The notes under the pieces are model-generated. The model was not told the DNA's origin. It did not search any database and saw nothing but the letters and a program-made list of their open reading frames with translations. From an uncultured Actinomycetota bacterium (lineage in GTDB: Bacteria > Actinomycetota > Actinomycetes > Propionibacteriales > Nocardioidaceae): a stretch of 64,000 nt of DNA. The stretch lies in contig CAVRIE010000009.1 of assembly GCA_963721165.1 (NCBI GenBank), forward strand, positions 19,800 through 83,799, given 5' to 3'. Shown in pieces: positions 5,411 through 20,527 of this stretch. The position numbers and the translations under genes are program-made. The first letter of the stretch is position 1, and every line of letters starts with the position of its first letter.

Positions 5411-6950
5411 ATGGATCCAAGTGGCACAGACACGATGACCCGAGGGGCTCCGCCGGGCGATGGTGGCGCGCAGCCGGGATGGTGGTGCGCAGCCGGGCGA
5501 CGACGGGGTGGAGGTCGCGAAGGGGGAGAAGCGCCTTGCGGATCGGATCCTTCTCGACGACGCTCTCGAGGCGATGGTCGCGGAGAACCGGTCCCGGGCG
5601 ATGCGACTCGATGCGGTCAGCGAGTTCCACGCGCGCCGGGTGGCAGAGGCGGAGACGCGAGGGTCCGGTGCTCCCGGTTTCTTCGTCCTGACTCCGCTGC
5701 AGGCGACCAAGGTCGAGTTCTGCCCGCTCCTCGGCATCGGTGAGCTGATGTTGCAGTTCGACCTGGAGCTGACCGACGGTCTCAAGCAGTGGTTCCCGCG
5801 CCTGTGGCGCCGCTGCATGAAAGGTCGGCTGGACATCGGCCGGGCAAGGCTCGCCTACGACCAGCTGCAGAACCTGACCAACGACGCCGACAAGGCGGCC
5901 TTCGCGGAGCTCATCGAGGAGATGTTCGACCGGATGGACGATCCTGCCTCGCCGCTCTACCCGGTGAGCCGCACGACGTTGCAGCGCGCGATCCGCCGCA
6001 GGTGCTTGAAGTTCCCGCAGAAGAGCGAGGACGACAACTTCGGCGAGGCGTTCAAGAAGCGGCGGGTCAAGCTCGAGACCGACGAGAACGGCATGGGAAG
6101 TCTGAGCGTGAGTACGGCGGTGCACGATGCCATGACCGCCGACTACCGCCTGACCCTCATCGCCAAGAAGCTGGGCGAGGCCAAGGGCGAGACCCGCACC
6201 CTCGACCAGCGCCGCGCCGACGTGTGCATCGACCTCATCCTGGGTCGTCTGACCGTCGGAGCGACCGACGGTGAGCTCGAGGATGACAGCACGGGTGGTG
6301 GGGACGACCCAGCGGAGACCTTCGAACGCAAGCCCGTAGGCAGGTTCGCCCGGCCGATCATCAACGTGACCGTCCCGATCACGACACTGATGGGCCTGAG
6401 CGACGAGCCCGGCGTGATGGCAGGTGGCACGTCCCTCCCGGCGGACGTCACGCGGCACATCGCGACGGACCCGGACGCGACGTGGTACCGGCTCCTCACA
6501 GACCCGGCCGGCGGGTTCCTGGAGCTCTCGACGACGAGCTACACGCCGACCGATGCCATCTGGCGATGGACCGTCGCCTGCAACCAGAAGTGCATCTGGC
6601 CCGGATGCTGCCGCCCGGCGACGGTCATCGAGCTGGACCACCGAATCCGGTTCCCGCTCGGGAAGACCTCGACATGCAACCTCCAGCCGCTGTGTCGCCG
6701 ACACCATCACGTCAAGCACTCGGAGGGCTTCTCGGTCGTACTCGAGGCCGACGGGTCCTACACGTGGACGAGCCGGTTCGGGAGCACCTTCCGGACGCCG
6801 GCGCCGGAGTACCCGATCGCGGTGTGGCCCGAGGACGTGCCGGCGCCGCCCTCGGCCGAGGTGGTGGAGGCGGCGGCCAAGGTCGATCTCGCGTTCCGCT
6901 CGATCGTGGAGCGGGAGTTCGAGGCGGTGATCGTCCGGTGTCACTCCTGA
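5411..6950 (+). CDS. DUF222 (13E12 repeat family) HNH endonuclease-domain protein; probable frameshift near 5480
   Basis: RTLDQRRAD, C-terminal CIWPGC...ELDHRIRF...NLQPLCRRHHHVKH; RBS GGAGG 5401-5405 before ATG 5411; main ORF 5460..6950. Confidence 0.85.
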
Positions 6951-6984
6951 CCAGGCTCCGAGCCGTTCGAACGATCCTTGCTCG

Positions 6985-7050
6985 CGAGCTCGCCAGAGGT
7001 CGAGCGCGCCAGAGGTCGGCGGCGCCCGTCGAGATCGCCAGAGGCCGAGC
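6985..7050 (+). repeat. Short 16-bp repeats cgagNNcgccagagg (3 copies)
   Basis: Copies at 6985, 7001 and 7030. Confidence 0.6.
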
Positions 7051-7072
7051 ACGCCGTCGTAGAGTCGCTGGT

Positions 7073-7558
7073 ATGGAGCTGACGGTCGTCGAAGGAGACA
7101 TCACCCAGCAGAAGGTGGACGCGATCGTGAACGCCGCCAACGAGCGCATGCGCGGTGGCGGTGGGGTCGACGGCGCCATCCATGGCGCGGGTGGACCCGC
7201 AATCCTCCAGGACTGCATCGAGCGCTTCCCCGATGGGCTGCCCACCGGTGAGGCGGGCTGGACGACTGCCGGGAACCTCCCCGCCAAGTGGGTCATCCAC
7301 GTCGTCGGGCCGGTCTACGGCGACGGGACGCGGGACCAGCTCGTCTCCTGCTACGCCAACGCGCTCCGCGTAGCCGACGAGTTAGGGGCACGGTCGGTGG
7401 CGTTCCCGCTGGTCTCGGCTGGCGTCTACGGCTGGCCCCGAGAGGACGCGATCCGCGCGGCGGTCGACACGATCCGCGGCACGCCGACCGCTGTCTCAGA
7501 GGTCCGACTCGTGGCGTTCGGGCGTCCGACGTACGACGCCATGCAAGCCGCCCTCTGA
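7073..7558 (+). CDS. Macro-domain protein (O-acetyl-ADP-ribose deacetylase, YmdB-like)
   Basis: VEGDITQQKVDAIVNAAN..MRGGGGVDGAIH, VIHVVGPVY, SVAFPLVSAGVYGWP; TAGAGT -10 six nt upstream suggests a leaderless transcript. Confidence 0.92.
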   Translation: MELTVVEGDITQQKVDAIVNAANERMRGGGGVDGAIHGAGGPAILQDCIERFPDGLPTGEAGWTTAGNLPAKWVIHVVGPVYGDGTRDQLVSCYANALRVADELGARSVAFPLVSAGVYGWPREDAIRAAVDTIRGTPTAVSEVRLVAFGRPTYDAMQAAL

Positions 7559-7721
7559 TCGGACCGAACGGCTCATCGTTCCCAGAGCACCGGATTACCC
7601 CATTCTGAGGGTGTTCCCCCTACGTCCGGGCTTTACCGTCGAAGAGTCCACAAGACTTGCAGGGGGGCTGCGGGTGATCGATGCCTATCCCGGTGCGCGG
7701 GCGCCGGAGGGGAAGTGCACG

Positions 7722-8941
7722 ATGCGGTCCACATCTGGTCGCCGCACCCTCCGGTCCGCGGTGTCGGTCGGCCTCGCCGTTTTCGTCGTCGGTGTCACGA
7801 GCGCTGCCTACCCAGAAGGCAACGAGAACTCAGGCTCATCATCGACAGCCTCGAACGGCTCCGCCGGCAACTCGTATATCGATGGCACCCAGCCCGGCGG
7901 CGACCTCCAAACGACTGACGGCACACCAACCGGGGAACAGCCAACTGACGGGGTGTCGCCTCCGGATGTGTCTCCACCGGTCGTGGCTCCACCGGTCGTG
8001 TACTCCGCCGGTCGTGTCTCCGCCTGTTGTGACTCCGCCTGTTGTGAGCTCCGCCGGTCGTGTCTCCGCCTGTTGTGACTCCGCCGGTCGTGTCTCCGCC
8101 TGTTGTGACTCCGCCGGTTGTGTCGACCACGTCCGACTGGAACCTCAATTTCACCTACGGCACGACCAACAACGGTGTCACCACGAACGACAGTTTCAAC
8201 AACGGCAGCTTCTGCAACGGGTCGTCCTCGGACTGTCGGTGCAACGACAGTTCTCACTGTGACGGCTCGAGCTGGCGGTGCGATAGCGGGAGCTTCTGCA
8301 ACGGGTCGTCCTCGGACTGTCGGTGCAACGACAGTTCTCACTGTGACGGCTCGAGCTGTGGGTGCGATAGCGGGAGCTTCTGCAACGGGTCGTCCTCGGA
8401 CTGTCGGTGCAACGACAGTTCTCACTGTGACGGCTCGAGCTGTGGGTGCGATAGCGGGAGCTTCTGCAACGGGTCGTCCTCGGACTGTCGGTGCAACGAC
8501 AGTTCTCACTGCGACGGCTCGAACTGCCGGTGCGACAGCAACAGCGCGCACTGCGACCACTCGAACTGCCGTTGCAACAACGACAATCACTCGTCGGACG
8601 GCAACTGCGGCTGCGACCGGGACACCGGCAACTCGACGGTGACGATATCGCCGGTCGCCACCCCGACAACGGTGCCCGTCACGGTGCCTGTCACGACGCC
8701 GGTCACGGTGCCTGTCACGACGCCGGTCGAGACGACCGTTCCGGCGGCTCCCGTGGTGACCCAGGCCGCCGTGCCGGCCGTCGTGGCAGCTCCCGTGGCA
8801 GCGCCTGCGCCCGCGGCTGCCCCGAGCCAGGGGACGCTGCCCAGGGTGGGTGCCGACTCGAAGGATGACCTGTTGGCCTTCGGAGGTGCCGCGATGCTGC
8901 TCACGGGGATCGTGCTGCTGCGGCTCCAGAGAAGGACCTAA
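7722..8941 (+). CDS. Secreted Cys-rich repeat protein with LPxTG-like (LPRVG) sorting signal; two +1 indels in the VSPPV repeats
   Basis: Signal peptide MRSTSGRRTLRSAVSVGLAVFVVGVTSAAY; Pro/Val repeats; Cys-rich repeats; Thr/Pro/Ala stalk; LPRVG + hydrophobic helix + RLQRRT. Confidence 0.8.
7953..8119 (+). repeat. 15-bp tandem repeat encoding V[S/T/A]PP[V/D] x11
   Basis: gtgtctccgcctgtt / gtgactccgccggtc units; two units are 16 nt (7998, 8044). Confidence 0.9.
8204..8539 (+). repeat. 84-bp tandem repeat x4 encoding GSFCNGSSSDCRCNDSSHCDGSSCGCDS
   Basis: Unit starts at 8204, 8288, 8372, 8456. Confidence 0.95.
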
Positions 8942-9002
8942 GAGCTGGCGCCGGCCGCTACCCAATCCCACCCGGCCGGCGCTGGGATACCTCCCAAGGA
9001 AA

Positions 9003-9038
9003 GTGGGCGGCAGTCTCTCAGTCGAGACTGCCGCCCAC
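9003..9038 (+). terminator. Terminator hairpin, copy 1
   Basis: gtgggcggcagtctc-tcagtc-gagactgccgcccac, 15-bp stem. Confidence 0.8.
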
Positions 9039-9265
9039 GGTTCGTTGTGAGGGTGCGGTGGACGGTCCCCCAAGCGACCGACGCCCACGCGTCTTTGGTG
9101 AAGACGGTGAGTCTGGCCTTCCCGCACCAGCTCGGAACTACCCGATTTTGAGGGCGCCTTTACTTACTTCGCGCTTTAGCGTCCCACAGGCAAAGGAGGC
9201 TTGCGCGGAGCTGCGTGCGAGCGACGACGATCCCGGCTCATTGTGCCGGAGGGTGGAGAAGCGTC

Positions 9266-10295
9266 ATGCATTGCTTACGTACTCGCGGGCATACGTTCCG
9301 CGCTGTCGCATCGGTCGGAATGGCCGTGTTCGTGCTCGGAGTCACCAGTCCGTCCTACGCCGACGACGGCAACGGCTCCCATGGGAACTCGTCTCACCAG
9401 GAGAAGTGGGCCGGCGAGAACTCGGCGGCGGCAACTGGGACGGCGGGAAGTCCGGCGGCGACAACTGGGATGGGGGAAGTCCGACGGCGGCAAGGAGTCC
9501 GGCTGGGACGGGGGAGAAGTCCGGCGGCGACAACTGGGACAGCGAGGAGTCCGGCTGGGACGGGGAGAAGTCCGGCGGCGACAACTGGGGCAGCGAGGAG
9601 TCCGGCTGGGACGGCGAGAAGTCCGGCGGCGACAAGGAGTCCGGCTGGGACGGGGAGAAGTCCGGCGGCGACAAGGAGTCCGGCTGGGACGGGGAGAAGT
9701 CCGGCCGTGACAAGTGGCACGGAGAGGACCACGGGGACAAGGACCACGGGGACAAGGACCACGGGGACAAGGACCACGGGGACAAGGAGCACGGGGACAA
9801 GGACCACGGGGACAAGGAGCACGGGGACAGGGACGCACGGGGACAAGGAGCACGGGGACAAGGAGCACGGGGACAAGGACCACGGGGACAAGGACCACGG
9901 GGACAAGGAGCACGGGGACAAGGAGCACGGCGACAAGGACCACGGGGACAAGGACCACGGCGACAAGGAGCACGGCGACAAGGACGACGAGGAAGAGTGC
10001 GAGTGCCCGAAGGAGGAGAAGCCTGAGAGAGGAGGTCCCGCCCGCTGAGCAGCCTCAGGAGCAGCCCGCTCCGCCCGAGGCCGTCCCGGCTGAGCAGCCC
10101 GCGCCTCCTGCGGAGGTCCCTGCCGCGCCGGCCGTCGCACCGGCCCCCGAGGCAGCGCCTGCCCCGGCCGCAGTGGCTCCGACCCAGGCTCTGCCGTCGG
10201 TCGGTGCCGACCCGGTGGACGAGGCCCTGGCGTTCGTAGGGGCCGGGATGGTGCTCTCGGGAGCCACCCTGCTGTGGCGTCGCAGAAGGGCTTGA
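9266..10295 (+). CDS. Secreted His/Trp/acidic repeat protein with LPxTG-like (LPSVG) sorting signal; several indels within the repeats
   Basis: Signal peptide MHCLRTRGHTFRAVASVGMAVFVLGVTSPSYA; ESGWDGEKSGGD repeats; HGDK[DE] repeats; Pro/Ala/Glu stalk; LPSVG + hydrophobic helix + WRRRRA. Confidence 0.8.
9430..9717 (+). repeat. 39/51-bp repeats encoding ESGWDGEKSGGD(K / NW[D/G]SE)
   Basis: gagtccggctgggacggggagaagtccggcggcgac repeated. Confidence 0.85.
9718..9985 (+). repeat. 15-bp tandem repeat cacggggacaagga[c/g] encoding HGDK[D/E] x17 after a leading HGED
   Basis: Counted directly; the unit at 9820-9835 is 16 nt. Confidence 0.95.
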
Positions 10296-10356
10296 GATCT
10301 GGCGCCGATCGCTGACCAGACCCAACCCGGCCGGCGCGCAGCAAGCTCACATGGAA

Positions 10357-10392
10357 GTGGGCGGCAGTCTCTCAGTCGGGACTGCCGCCCAC
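10357..10392 (+). terminator. Terminator hairpin, copy 2 (near-identical to 9003-9038)
   Basis: gtgggcggcagtctc-tcagtc-gggactgccgcccac, followed by ggggtttg. Confidence 0.8.
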
Positions 10393-10401
10393 GGGGTTTG
10401 C

Positions 10402-19511: not shown

Positions 19512-20527
19512 CCCCCGCCGAGCTCCCCGGCCTGGACCTCGACCGGTTCCGCACGTTCTTCGAGAAGGCCTGCCCGGGCGAGGTCACCGGGCCGCTGACC
19601 GGTTCGCTCGTCGCGGGCGGCAAGTCCAACCTGACCTACATCGTCGGCGACGGCCACCGCGAGTGGGTGGTGCGACGCCCGCCGCTCGGCCACGTGCTGG
19701 CCACCGCGCATGACATGACGCGGGAGTACCGCGTGATGACCGCGCTCCGGGACACCGACGTCCCCGTGCCCAGGACGTACGCCCTGTGCGAGGACGAGTC
19801 CGTGACCGGAGCGCAGTTCTATGTGATGGAGCGCGTGCACGGGACGCCGTACCGCACTGCCGCGGAGCTGGAGGCCCTGGGCCCGGAACGGACGGCCGCG
19901 ATCTCGCGAAGGACCGTCGAGACCCTCGCCACCCTGCACTCGGTCGACCCGGCCGCGGTCGGGCTGGCGGACTTCGGGCGGCCGGAGGGCTTCCTCGAGC
20001 GGCAGGTCCGCCGCTGGAAGAAGCAGCTCGACGCCTCGCACAGCCGCGACCTGGCCGGCGCCGACGAGCTGCACGCCCTGCTCGCCGCGAACATCCCGGC
20101 CGAGCAGACCCCGGCGATCGTGCACGGCGACTACCGCCTCGACAACCTGCTCGTCGACTCCCAGGACCGGATAGCCGCGGTCATCGACTGGGAGATGGCC
20201 ACGCTCGGCGACCCGCTGACCGACGTCGCGCTGATGGTCGTCTACCACCGCCTCGCCGCCCTCGACGCCGCTGTGGCCGACGCGTCGACGGCCGCCGGCT
20301 TCCTCAGTGAGGCCGACACGATCGAGCTGTACGGCTCACGGAGCGGGCGCGACCTGTCGGCCATGGGGTTCTACCTCGGGCTCGCCGCCTTCAAGCTCGC
20401 GGTGATCCTGGAGGGCATCCACTTCCGCTACACCCAGGGCCAGACCGTGGGCGAGGGGTTCGACTCCGTCGGCGCCTCCGTCGAGCCCCTGATCAACGCA
20501 GGCATCACCTCGCTGAAGGAGAACTGA
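19508..20527 (+). CDS. APH-family phosphotransferase (ACAD10/11 kinase-like, LvaA-like)
   Basis: GGKSNLTY, RRPPLG, AHDMTREY, VHGDYRLDN, IDWEMATLGDPLTD; GTGA overlap at 19508. Confidence 0.9.
   Translation: MTPAELPGLDLDRFRTFFEKACPGEVTGPLTGSLVAGGKSNLTYIVGDGHREWVVRRPPLGHVLATAHDMTREYRVMTALRDTDVPVPRTYALCEDESVTGAQFYVMERVHGTPYRTAAELEALGPERTAAISRRTVETLATLHSVDPAAVGLADFGRPEGFLERQVRRWKKQLDASHSRDLAGADELHALLAANIPAEQTPAIVHGDYRLDNLLVDSQDRIAAVIDWEMATLGDPLTDVALMVVYHRLAALDAAVADASTAAGFLSEADTIELYGSRSGRDLSAMGFYLGLAAFKLAVILEGIHFRYTQGQTVGEGFDSVGASVEPLINAGITSLKEN

Follow-up and report, generated by a model that had tools for sequence, protein, structure and literature searches.

A cysteine-dense tandem repeat as the putative payload of a wall-anchored protein in an uncultured soil actinobacterium

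A 64,000-nucleotide stretch of DNA from an uncultured actinobacterium of the family Nocardioidaceae (hereinafter, the window; positions 19,800 to 83,799 of contig CAVRIE010000009.1 in assembly GCA_963721165.1, or C9:19800-83799 of genome G000 in the notation used here; the genome consists of 4.36 Mb in 18 contigs, with 70% GC) contains, at positions 8204-8623, a tandem repeat that is exceptionally rich in cysteine. The repeat is real, and the countable details given for it in an earlier description made from the letters alone (hereinafter, the sequence-only reading) are all correct. The Cys-rich frame is shown here to be the coding frame, and the full reading favored below, in which a cell-surface protein of approximately 405 residues displays the repeat as a disulfide-stapled payload in this soil organism, has about even odds. 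The Cys module matches no described protein family and seems to represent an undescribed type of repeat within the known class of sortase-type wall-anchored repeat proteins.

Tandem Repeats Finder reports the repeat at 8203-8539, with a period of 84, 4.0 copies, 96% matches and a score of 618, and codon-by-codon parsing places the starts of the units at 8204, 8288, 8372 and 8456, in agreement with the four 84-bp units and degenerate tail of the sequence-only reading, with the end of the tail at 8623. Each unit has the form GSFCNGSSSDCRCNDSSHCDGSSCGCDS, that is, 28 amino acids including 6 cysteines and one histidine, with the spacing C-x6-C-x-C-x5-C-x4-C-x-C, and units 2 and 3 are 100% identical in DNA sequence. 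The tail, at 8540-8623, reads NSAHCDHSNCRCNNDNHSSDGNCGCDRD and contributes 5 cysteines, so that the count of 28 cysteines and the alternation of C-x6-C-x-C and C-x4-C-x-C modules reported previously both hold. The variant TGG codon seen earlier in unit 1 is also there: at 8273-8275, Trp replaces the fifth cysteine, which is encoded by TGT in units 2 and 3 and by TGC in unit 4. The 140-residue core is built of 10 residue types (S39, C28, D21, G16, N15, R8, H7, F4, W1, A1); phenylalanine, one per unit, is the sole regular aromatic residue, and the two CxC motifs in each unit give the repeat a composition of the metallothionein kind. The gene that contains this repeat and the elements adjacent to it are laid out as follows.

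7590 to 7721, forward strand: conserved leader or promoter region, which can be aligned to 9133-9265 ahead of the paralogue and to leaders in the related genomes G003, G004, G021 and, more weakly, G023.
7722 to 8000, forward strand: start codon and Sec-type signal peptide MRSTSGRRTLRSAVSVGLAVFVVGVTSAAY, followed by a Ser/Gly/Asn/Thr-rich N-terminal segment (frame A, open reading frame (ORF) 7611-8078).
7953 to 8122, forward strand: about 11 tandem 15-bp units encoding V-x-P-P-V (period of 15 by Tandem Repeats Finder, and unit-by-unit parse).
8123 to 8203, forward strand: Asn/Thr-rich linker STTSDWNLNFTYGTTNNGVTTNDSFNN; in the G004 orthologue, the similar sequence DFNMSDWNALWSNNGSS precedes the Cys repeats.
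8204 to 8539, forward strand: the Cys repeat, four 84-bp units (Tandem Repeats Finder and codon parse).
8540 to 8623, forward strand: degenerate, older tail of the Cys repeat (HCDHSNCRC...NCGCDRD), with a GC content at third codon positions (GC3) of about 0.9-0.95 around it.
8624 to 8836, forward strand: Pro/Thr/Val/Ala-rich segment, presumed to be a wall-spanning stalk; the G004 orthologue has its TTPVT stalk in the colinear position.
8837 to 8941, forward strand: sorting signal, consisting of LPRVG (8837-8851), the helix LLAFGGAAMLLTGIVLL (8870-8920), RLQRRT (8921-8938) and the stop codon.
9003 to 9038, forward strand: hairpin with a 15-bp stem, a candidate terminator; a second copy follows the paralogue at about 10355-10394.
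9266 to 10295, forward strand: tandem paralogue, which shares the leader, signal peptide, stalk and hairpin of the first gene and has LPSVG in its sorting signal.

Several frames are open across the GC-rich Cys repeat, among them an ORF on the minus strand (7808-9127), so a DNA tandem repeat that is noncoding in the Cys frame, or coding on the other strand, had to be considered. However, the GC content at the third position of the minus-strand ORF is only about 0.35, whereas in the Cys frame (ORF 8060-8941) GC3 is 0.78-0.95, compared with 0.30-0.72 for the remaining two positions of the codon. Moreover, the Cys frame continues, without a stop, through the stalk, LPRVG, the membrane helix and RLQRRT, and it is the only frame that is connected both to the sorting signal and to the orthologue in G004. 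The identification of the Cys-rich frame as the translated one in the sequence-only reading is thus borne out, and the noncoding explanation can be virtually dismissed.

The sortase sorting signal has a characteristic layout with a pentapeptide, LPXTG (with the variants LAXTG, LPXTA and NPXTG), that harbors a threonine at the cleavage site (PMC13251363). The C-terminal region of the window protein reproduces the three-part layout save for the valine in place of the scissile threonine, and the hydrophobic segment LLAFGGAAMLLTGIVLL with the basic RLQRRT has the features of a C-terminal membrane segment. Among the NCBIfam models, the protein weakly matches the tail of an LPXTG surface-protein family. 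The source genome encodes one sortase (a single Pfam Sortase match), which belongs to class E by NCBIfam NF033747, with 192.5 bits against a cut-off of 160. The fourth position of the motif varies within the genus, being Thr, Val or Ala: the orthologues have LPATG, LPPTG or LPVTG, and LPAAG is found in G023. One relative, gene B of G003, matches the Gram_pos_anchor model with 25.7 bits, above the cut-off of 20. Upstream of the start codon, a GGAGGGG ribosome-binding site lies about 9 nt ahead of the ATG at 7722, and GC3 in frame A peaks at about 7680-7860. Overall, it is highly probable that the Cys repeat codes for a surface-anchored payload. Two adjacent small proteins with sorting signals, LPGVG and LPSTG, are encoded at C9:14650-15780 (L004 254-1379), some 4-5 kb ahead of the window start; the ORF with LPGVG seems to have its N-terminal portion out of frame. 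The genome has three motifs of the Val type, LPGVG, LPRVG and LPSVG, and they all fall within 15 kb on this contig.

The resemblance to the LPXTG proteins that depend on sortases, including the substrates of class E enzymes, extends to the Pro-rich wall segment, the succession of pentapeptide, helix and basic tail and a typical signal peptide, although the latter is in frame in the intact G004 orthologue and, in the window, is separated from the Cys frame by two +1 shifts, and is reinforced by the class E sortase of the genome and by the orthologues with canonical LPATG or LPPTG and a Gram_pos_anchor match. The window protein departs from them in its LPRVG motif and in lacking a globular ligand-binding domain, the low-complexity Cys repeat being its sole payload. 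The Ser-Asp repeats of the staphylococcal Clf/Sdr proteins are likewise wall-anchored, long, hydrophilic, Ser/Asp-rich and encoded by DNA arrays of variable length; those repeats, however, are Cys-free stalks beneath a folded adhesin, whereas the window repeat consists of 20% Cys and is apparently the payload itself. No sequence relationship was found between the window repeat and the Clf/Sdr repeats.

The locus was identified in relatives by a synteny walk from the adjacent SDR gene, whose protein product is 89% identical in G004. At the same locus, beside the SDR gene, G004 has an orthologue that is an intact single ORF encoding, in order, a signal peptide, GGDTGGGTTT repeats, DWNALWSNNGSS, Cys repeats (CDGSSFDCHNG, CDRSTFDCNNR), two DDDHHGDK tracts, a TTPVT stalk and APSQGELPATGAD...WSRRRA, with the sorting motif LPATG. 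The orthologue and the window protein are 40% identical over 268 amino acids (E = 1e-17). Used as the query, the orthologue matches both pieces of the window gene, the N-terminal piece, which aligns to its residues 2-84, with 44% identity and the Cys/C-terminal piece with 52%, which implies that the two ORFs in the window are one gene. The Cys frame is retained as protein in this second species, despite the remodelling of its repeat unit.

The proteins encoded at this locus comprise a genus-specific family, of the class E sortase type, in which the leader, signal peptide, stalk and anchor are kept while the payload is exchanged (Cys-rich, HGDK/DHHGD or Asp/Trp/Arg). One type of payload, with a conserved 6-Cys motif, GKPCAGCVGKADNKNP, is found in G003, G004, G021 and G023; another, seen in G003 and G008, is rich in Asp/Trp/Arg/His and has DHHGD tracts and periodically placed cysteines; and the Ser/Asp/Asn/Gly/Cys payload is found only in G000 and G004. 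The LPXTG-type proteins of four relatives (L005 258-1175, L007 236-1147, L008 2085-2927 and L011 3461-4468) have in common a six-Cys module of about 75 amino acids, GxCPGGxYCSTRDG...GKPCAGCVGKADNKNPxGQ...GYECDxNxGxGxxNPAHTxC; in a scan of one member, that from G003, Pfam detected only the anchor motif at E <= 0.1.

Searches for more distant relatives yielded no family. Scans of both gene pieces and the paralogue against Pfam and NCBIfam detected no real family, and a sequence search of the PDB found no relative, only insignificant matches resembling the LDL-receptor class A repeats. A database of 5.8 billion proteins gave no match with the whole protein, its Cys region or the Cys region of the G004 orthologue as the query, and there was no match to the Cys repeat either in a six-frame protein search of 40 relatives or when GTDB genomes and JGI metagenomes were scanned for its pattern. 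Neither the window protein nor the G004 orthologue came up in any of the large protein searches; the low complexity of these sequences defeats direct searches, so that even the true orthologue is missed. An exhaustive phmmer search did give 7 matches, the best of which (68 bits, E = 9e-14) was to proteins with disintegrin-like Cys repeats (Pfam Disintegrin), and the FCxGSSxDC motif is common to these and the window repeat. A diverged member of the bacterial disintegrin-like repeats (PF00200-type, ECRxSxGxCDxAEFCTGSSADCPxD) would be expected to match along a single unit; the profile of the disintegrin-like repeat aligns with a window unit over 14 residues only (CDxxxFCxGSSxDC; positions 8-21 of 32), with 11-15 bits. 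None of 2000 full shuffles attained this score, but 3 of 2000 did when the cysteines were kept in place. The tail, with -7.4 bits, ranks no higher than shuffled sequences, Pfam has no Disintegrin match at E <= 1, and the period (28 against 32 amino acids) and number of cysteines per unit (6 against 4, the PF00200-type pattern being C-x6-C-x5-C-x6-C) are different. The high total score in phmmer arises because four near-identical copies match the many copies in the targets. The match was accordingly rejected as homology after the single-unit and shuffle tests, and we consider this kinship very improbable. Together, the Pfam, NCBIfam and PDB searches and this profile test uphold the absence of a known domain on which the sequence-only reading depended.

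In a broader comparison, the window repeat has the scale of the small disulfide-rich repeats, such as the bacterial disintegrin-like or Myxococcus-type, LDL-receptor class A and thrombospondin type 3 repeats, namely 28-40 amino acids with 4-6 Cys, and, like these, has Asp/Asn/Ser-rich loops, has no hydrophobic core and belongs to a secreted or surface protein. It differs from them in period, number and spacing of the cysteines and contains no calcium signature (DxSDE or DxDxDG).

The sequence-only reading had offered two states for the cysteines, a disulfide-stapled fold or the chelation of metals, and the available evidence leans towards the former. In the eight members of the family, the numbers of cysteines are 28, 28, 10, 10, 6, 6, 8 and 6, that is, all even. 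The genome encodes a VKOR protein (78 bits, above the cut-off), and in actinobacteria VKOR re-oxidises an exported DsbA-like oxidase, as established for Mycobacterium, Actinomyces and Corynebacterium. By a crude prediction applied to the whole genome, 146 of the exported soluble proteins have an even and 85 an odd number of cysteines (63% even), whereas the corresponding numbers for the predicted cytoplasmic proteins are 345 and 445 (44% even; Fisher p = 2e-7). Because of the even counts, the presence of VKOR and the even-Cys bias among exported proteins, disulfide stapling is somewhat favored over free thiolates.

Under the competing scenario, the protein would be a surface-displayed module of the metallothionein kind, with reduced cysteines and histidines holding Cu(I), Zn or Cd in thiolate clusters and sequestering or buffering metal at the wall. 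The two CxC motifs per unit, the histidine next to a cysteine and the Ser/Gly/Asn/Asp matrix, a composition that we take to resemble those of fungal Cu-metallothioneins and mycobacterial MymT, fit this scenario, and so do the tandem paralogue with its 17 HGDK(D/E) units, the single chain in G004 in which Cys repeats are followed by DDDHHGDK, and the DHHGD tracts in the family members from G003 and G008. An even number of cysteines in eight of eight members, however, is not needed for binding through thiolates, and VKOR together with the bias among exported proteins is typical of disulfide formers. Furthermore, there is no match to any metallothionein profile in Pfam or NCBIfam at E <= 1, there is no metal transporter or regulator among the neighboring genes, no metal gene, riboswitch or operator of a metal regulator is linked to the Cys-repeat gene, and the CsoR operators of the genome (ATACCCCC...GGGGGT) differ in spacing from the motif in the leader. 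The known metallothioneins (fungal Cu-metallothioneins, MymT and cyanobacterial SmtA) are similarly rich in cysteine and CxC motifs, with some histidine ligands in a Ser/Gly/Asn/Asp matrix, but are small and cytosolic, whereas the window module is repetitive, presumably exported and wall-anchored, and belongs to a family with strictly even Cys in an organism that forms disulfides; no natural wall-anchored protein of the metallothionein kind was found in the literature. We accordingly regard metal-thiolate clusters as rather unlikely, and the designation "metallothionein-like" given in the sequence-only reading describes a resemblance in composition rather than an established membership in a metallothionein family.

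Disulfide stapling and anchoring can be combined in a coherent, if conjectural, mode of action. The Sec signal peptide would export the protein, provided that both frameshifts discussed below are artefacts, and LPRVG, with the helix and the basic tail, would hold it in the membrane; in the orthologue with LPATG, the single class E sortase would link the protein to peptidoglycan. By analogy, the Pro/Thr/Val segment would span the wall. The 140-residue Ser/Asp/Asn/Gly/Cys module, with no hydrophobic core, would undergo extracellular oxidation through the DsbA/VKOR pathway and thereby become a string of small knots stapled by disulfides, about 3 for every 28 residues, as the parity of the cysteines and the presence of VKOR suggest. 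Conceivably, the loops lined with Asp, Asn, Ser and His offer a dense hydrophilic surface for cations or minerals. A still bolder proposition, to which we give little credence at present, is that this genus has a dedicated locus for displaying interchangeable arrays of metal ligands on the wall (CxC-rich, HGDK/DHHGD or Asp/Trp/Arg), with which the cells would scavenge or detoxify metals or attach to minerals. Were this the case, nature would have produced an equivalent of the metallothioneins and His-tags that are displayed on cell surfaces by engineering, with the Cys repeat as a thiol-based or redox-switchable version.

A number of observations weigh against the reading of the repeat as the disulfide-stapled payload of an intact, anchored surface protein. 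In the assembly, the signal peptide (ORF 7611-8078) and the Cys repeat (ORF 8060-8941) are in different frames. The sorting pentapeptides, LPRVG and, in the paralogue, LPSVG, are devoid of the threonine at the cleavage site, and Pfam Gram_pos_anchor (PF00746) does not match the window protein at E <= 1. The four Cys units are nearly identical in DNA sequence and are hence uninformative with regard to selection at the protein level, and the eight family members in which the cysteines are all even amount in effect to about six independent proteins. A hint of metal binding, rather than a purely structural role, comes from the His/Asp modules of the paralogue and the orthologue. Structure prediction, which the sequence-only reading had proposed as a check, was performed with AlphaFold2 on the single sequence without an alignment, and the resulting model, with a pLDDT (predicted local distance difference test score) of 42, is uninformative and unusable.

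The discordance of the frames can be traced to the V-x-P-P-V array. Two of its units have 16 bp, namely 7998-8013 (GTG-TA-CTCC...) and 8044-8059 (GTG-AG-CTCC...), and each causes a +1 shift; in both, the extra base is at the sole variable position of the array (GTG[T/A/G]CT), with both alternative alleles adjacent, and the GC3 phase steps from A to B to C exactly across the array. Counting one unit of the paralogue, there are three shifted repeat units, two in the first gene and one in the second, and each consists of a normal 15-bp unit plus one base, with both alleles present. Slippage of 15-bp units would change whole units rather than single bases, and the shifts are therefore read as consensus artefacts. 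About 9 kb of aminoacyl-tRNA synthetase genes of the source genome are intact. A sister genome within the genus is a soil metagenome-assembled genome (MAG) of Microflora Danica. The region of G015 that is syntenic with the locus (L006, C2:5500-17500) is full of frame changes in genes that, judging from their sequences, presumably encode a DeoR-type regulator, PdxA and a transporter, and yet the aminoacyl-tRNA synthetase genes of G015 are intact, which indicates that the quality of the assembly is uneven within these MAGs. It thus appears fairly probable that the frameshifts are artefacts of the assembly consensus in repeats or strain-variable regions, and the gene probably looks broken in the assembly through consensus errors. 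As for the extracellular location claimed in the sequence-only reading, an extracellular module is supported; that the signal peptide is in another frame, two frameshifts away, had been missed.

The main alternative is a true pseudogene, that is, a decaying locus with genuine shifts, in which neither of the tandem genes functions any longer in this strain and the Val that replaces Thr in the two sorting motifs is a product of the decay. The two shifts in the first gene and at least five in the second, the presence of LPRVG and LPSVG where LPxTG is expected, and the frameshifted appearance of other surface genes 9-13 kb upstream on the contig are all compatible with this possibility, as is the intactness of the core genes, which indicates that the shifts are local rather than genome-wide. 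Pseudogenization, however, does not readily account for the absence of in-frame stops and deletions or for the high GC3 in all pieces; the identical units 2 and 3 point to recent expansion of the array; shifts in the form of both alleles or homopolymer changes are not expected from slippage of 15-bp units; and the fourth position of the motif is Val, Ala or Thr within the genus, including in intact genes (LPAAG in G023). Decay of the locus hence seems unlikely to us, less so than the metal-thiolate clusters considered above. In G000, a gene at C9:17730-19510 (L004 3329-5114), next to polysaccharide genes, seems to be split over at least 4 frames; its product is, from the sequence, presumably DUF4012-like, and this gene is a further sign of the clustering of shifts in surface-related, probably strain-variable regions.

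The consensus-error reading of the shifts has a practical corollary: in long-read MAGs, single-base consensus errors in tandem repeats can hide genes of this kind from gene callers and protein databases. The protein described here is unusual, yet the region that encodes it is of low complexity, has been recently amplified and is possibly mis-assembled. If it is indeed made and displayed, it contains an undescribed type of repeat, with 20% Cys and no hydrophobic core, that is found in two species-level genomes only. The family to which it belongs would then be one of fast-evolving wall-anchored proteins in uncultured soil Actinomycetota and could become a test case both for the use of disulfide-rich or ligand-rich low-complexity surface arrays by Gram-positive soil bacteria and for the origin of new repeat payloads within a conserved export-and-anchor cassette.

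The payload of the tandem paralogue consists of G/E/K/S/W repeats followed by the HGDK(D/E) units and DEEECECP, and its reading frame changes at least 5 times. In one shifted unit, at 9820-9835, the D/E-variable site is GAC-G-CAC, as against an alternation of GAC and GAG among the other units; two more shifts are changes in the length of a G run (a -1/+1 pair) at about 9470-9516. The two copies of the hairpin that follow the two genes are 97.5% identical over 40 nt, with no further copies in the genome, and the 61-nt stretch around the hairpin at 9003-9038 folds with -39.9 kcal/mol (z = -8).

Upstream of the surface-protein genes, a DUF222 gene and a macro-domain gene (5460-7558) are directly adjacent and hold the same position in G021 (L007), which suggests that the surface genes occupy a conserved junction. 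The DUF222 gene, judging from its sequence, presumably includes an HNH nuclease motif, although none was reported by Pfam. Together with these two, the neighboring genes encode a DUF2516 protein, a sugar transferase, a topoisomerase IB-like protein, an SDR protein and an acyl-CoA dehydrogenase.

The leaders of the gene and the paralogue contain the element (A/T)(C/T)TACCC-N5-TGAGGG(T/C)G, for which the form across the family (7590-7721 and 9133-9265 in the window; L005, L007, L008 and L011) is ACTACCC-N4/5-TG(A/G)GGGTG; a TAGCGTC box accompanies it in most members, with TACCGTC in the first gene. When 4-6 nt are allowed between the halves, TACCC...TGAGGG occurs at just two sites in the genome, the two leaders. 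Nothing above noise, and no riboswitch, emerged when the leaders and genes were scanned with Rfam, and no regulator of the element was identified. The possibility that the element is an operator of the copper regulator CsoR is unsupported: the half-sites in the operators of the genome's own CsoR gene, ATACCCCC-N-GGGGGT, are nearly contiguous, whereas the halves in the leaders are 7-8 nt apart. Two textbook CsoR-type operators, CATACCCCCTAGAGGTATATG and GATACCCCCAGGGGGTTTAG, are located at C10:673050-673130 of G000, directly upstream of a CsoR-family gene.

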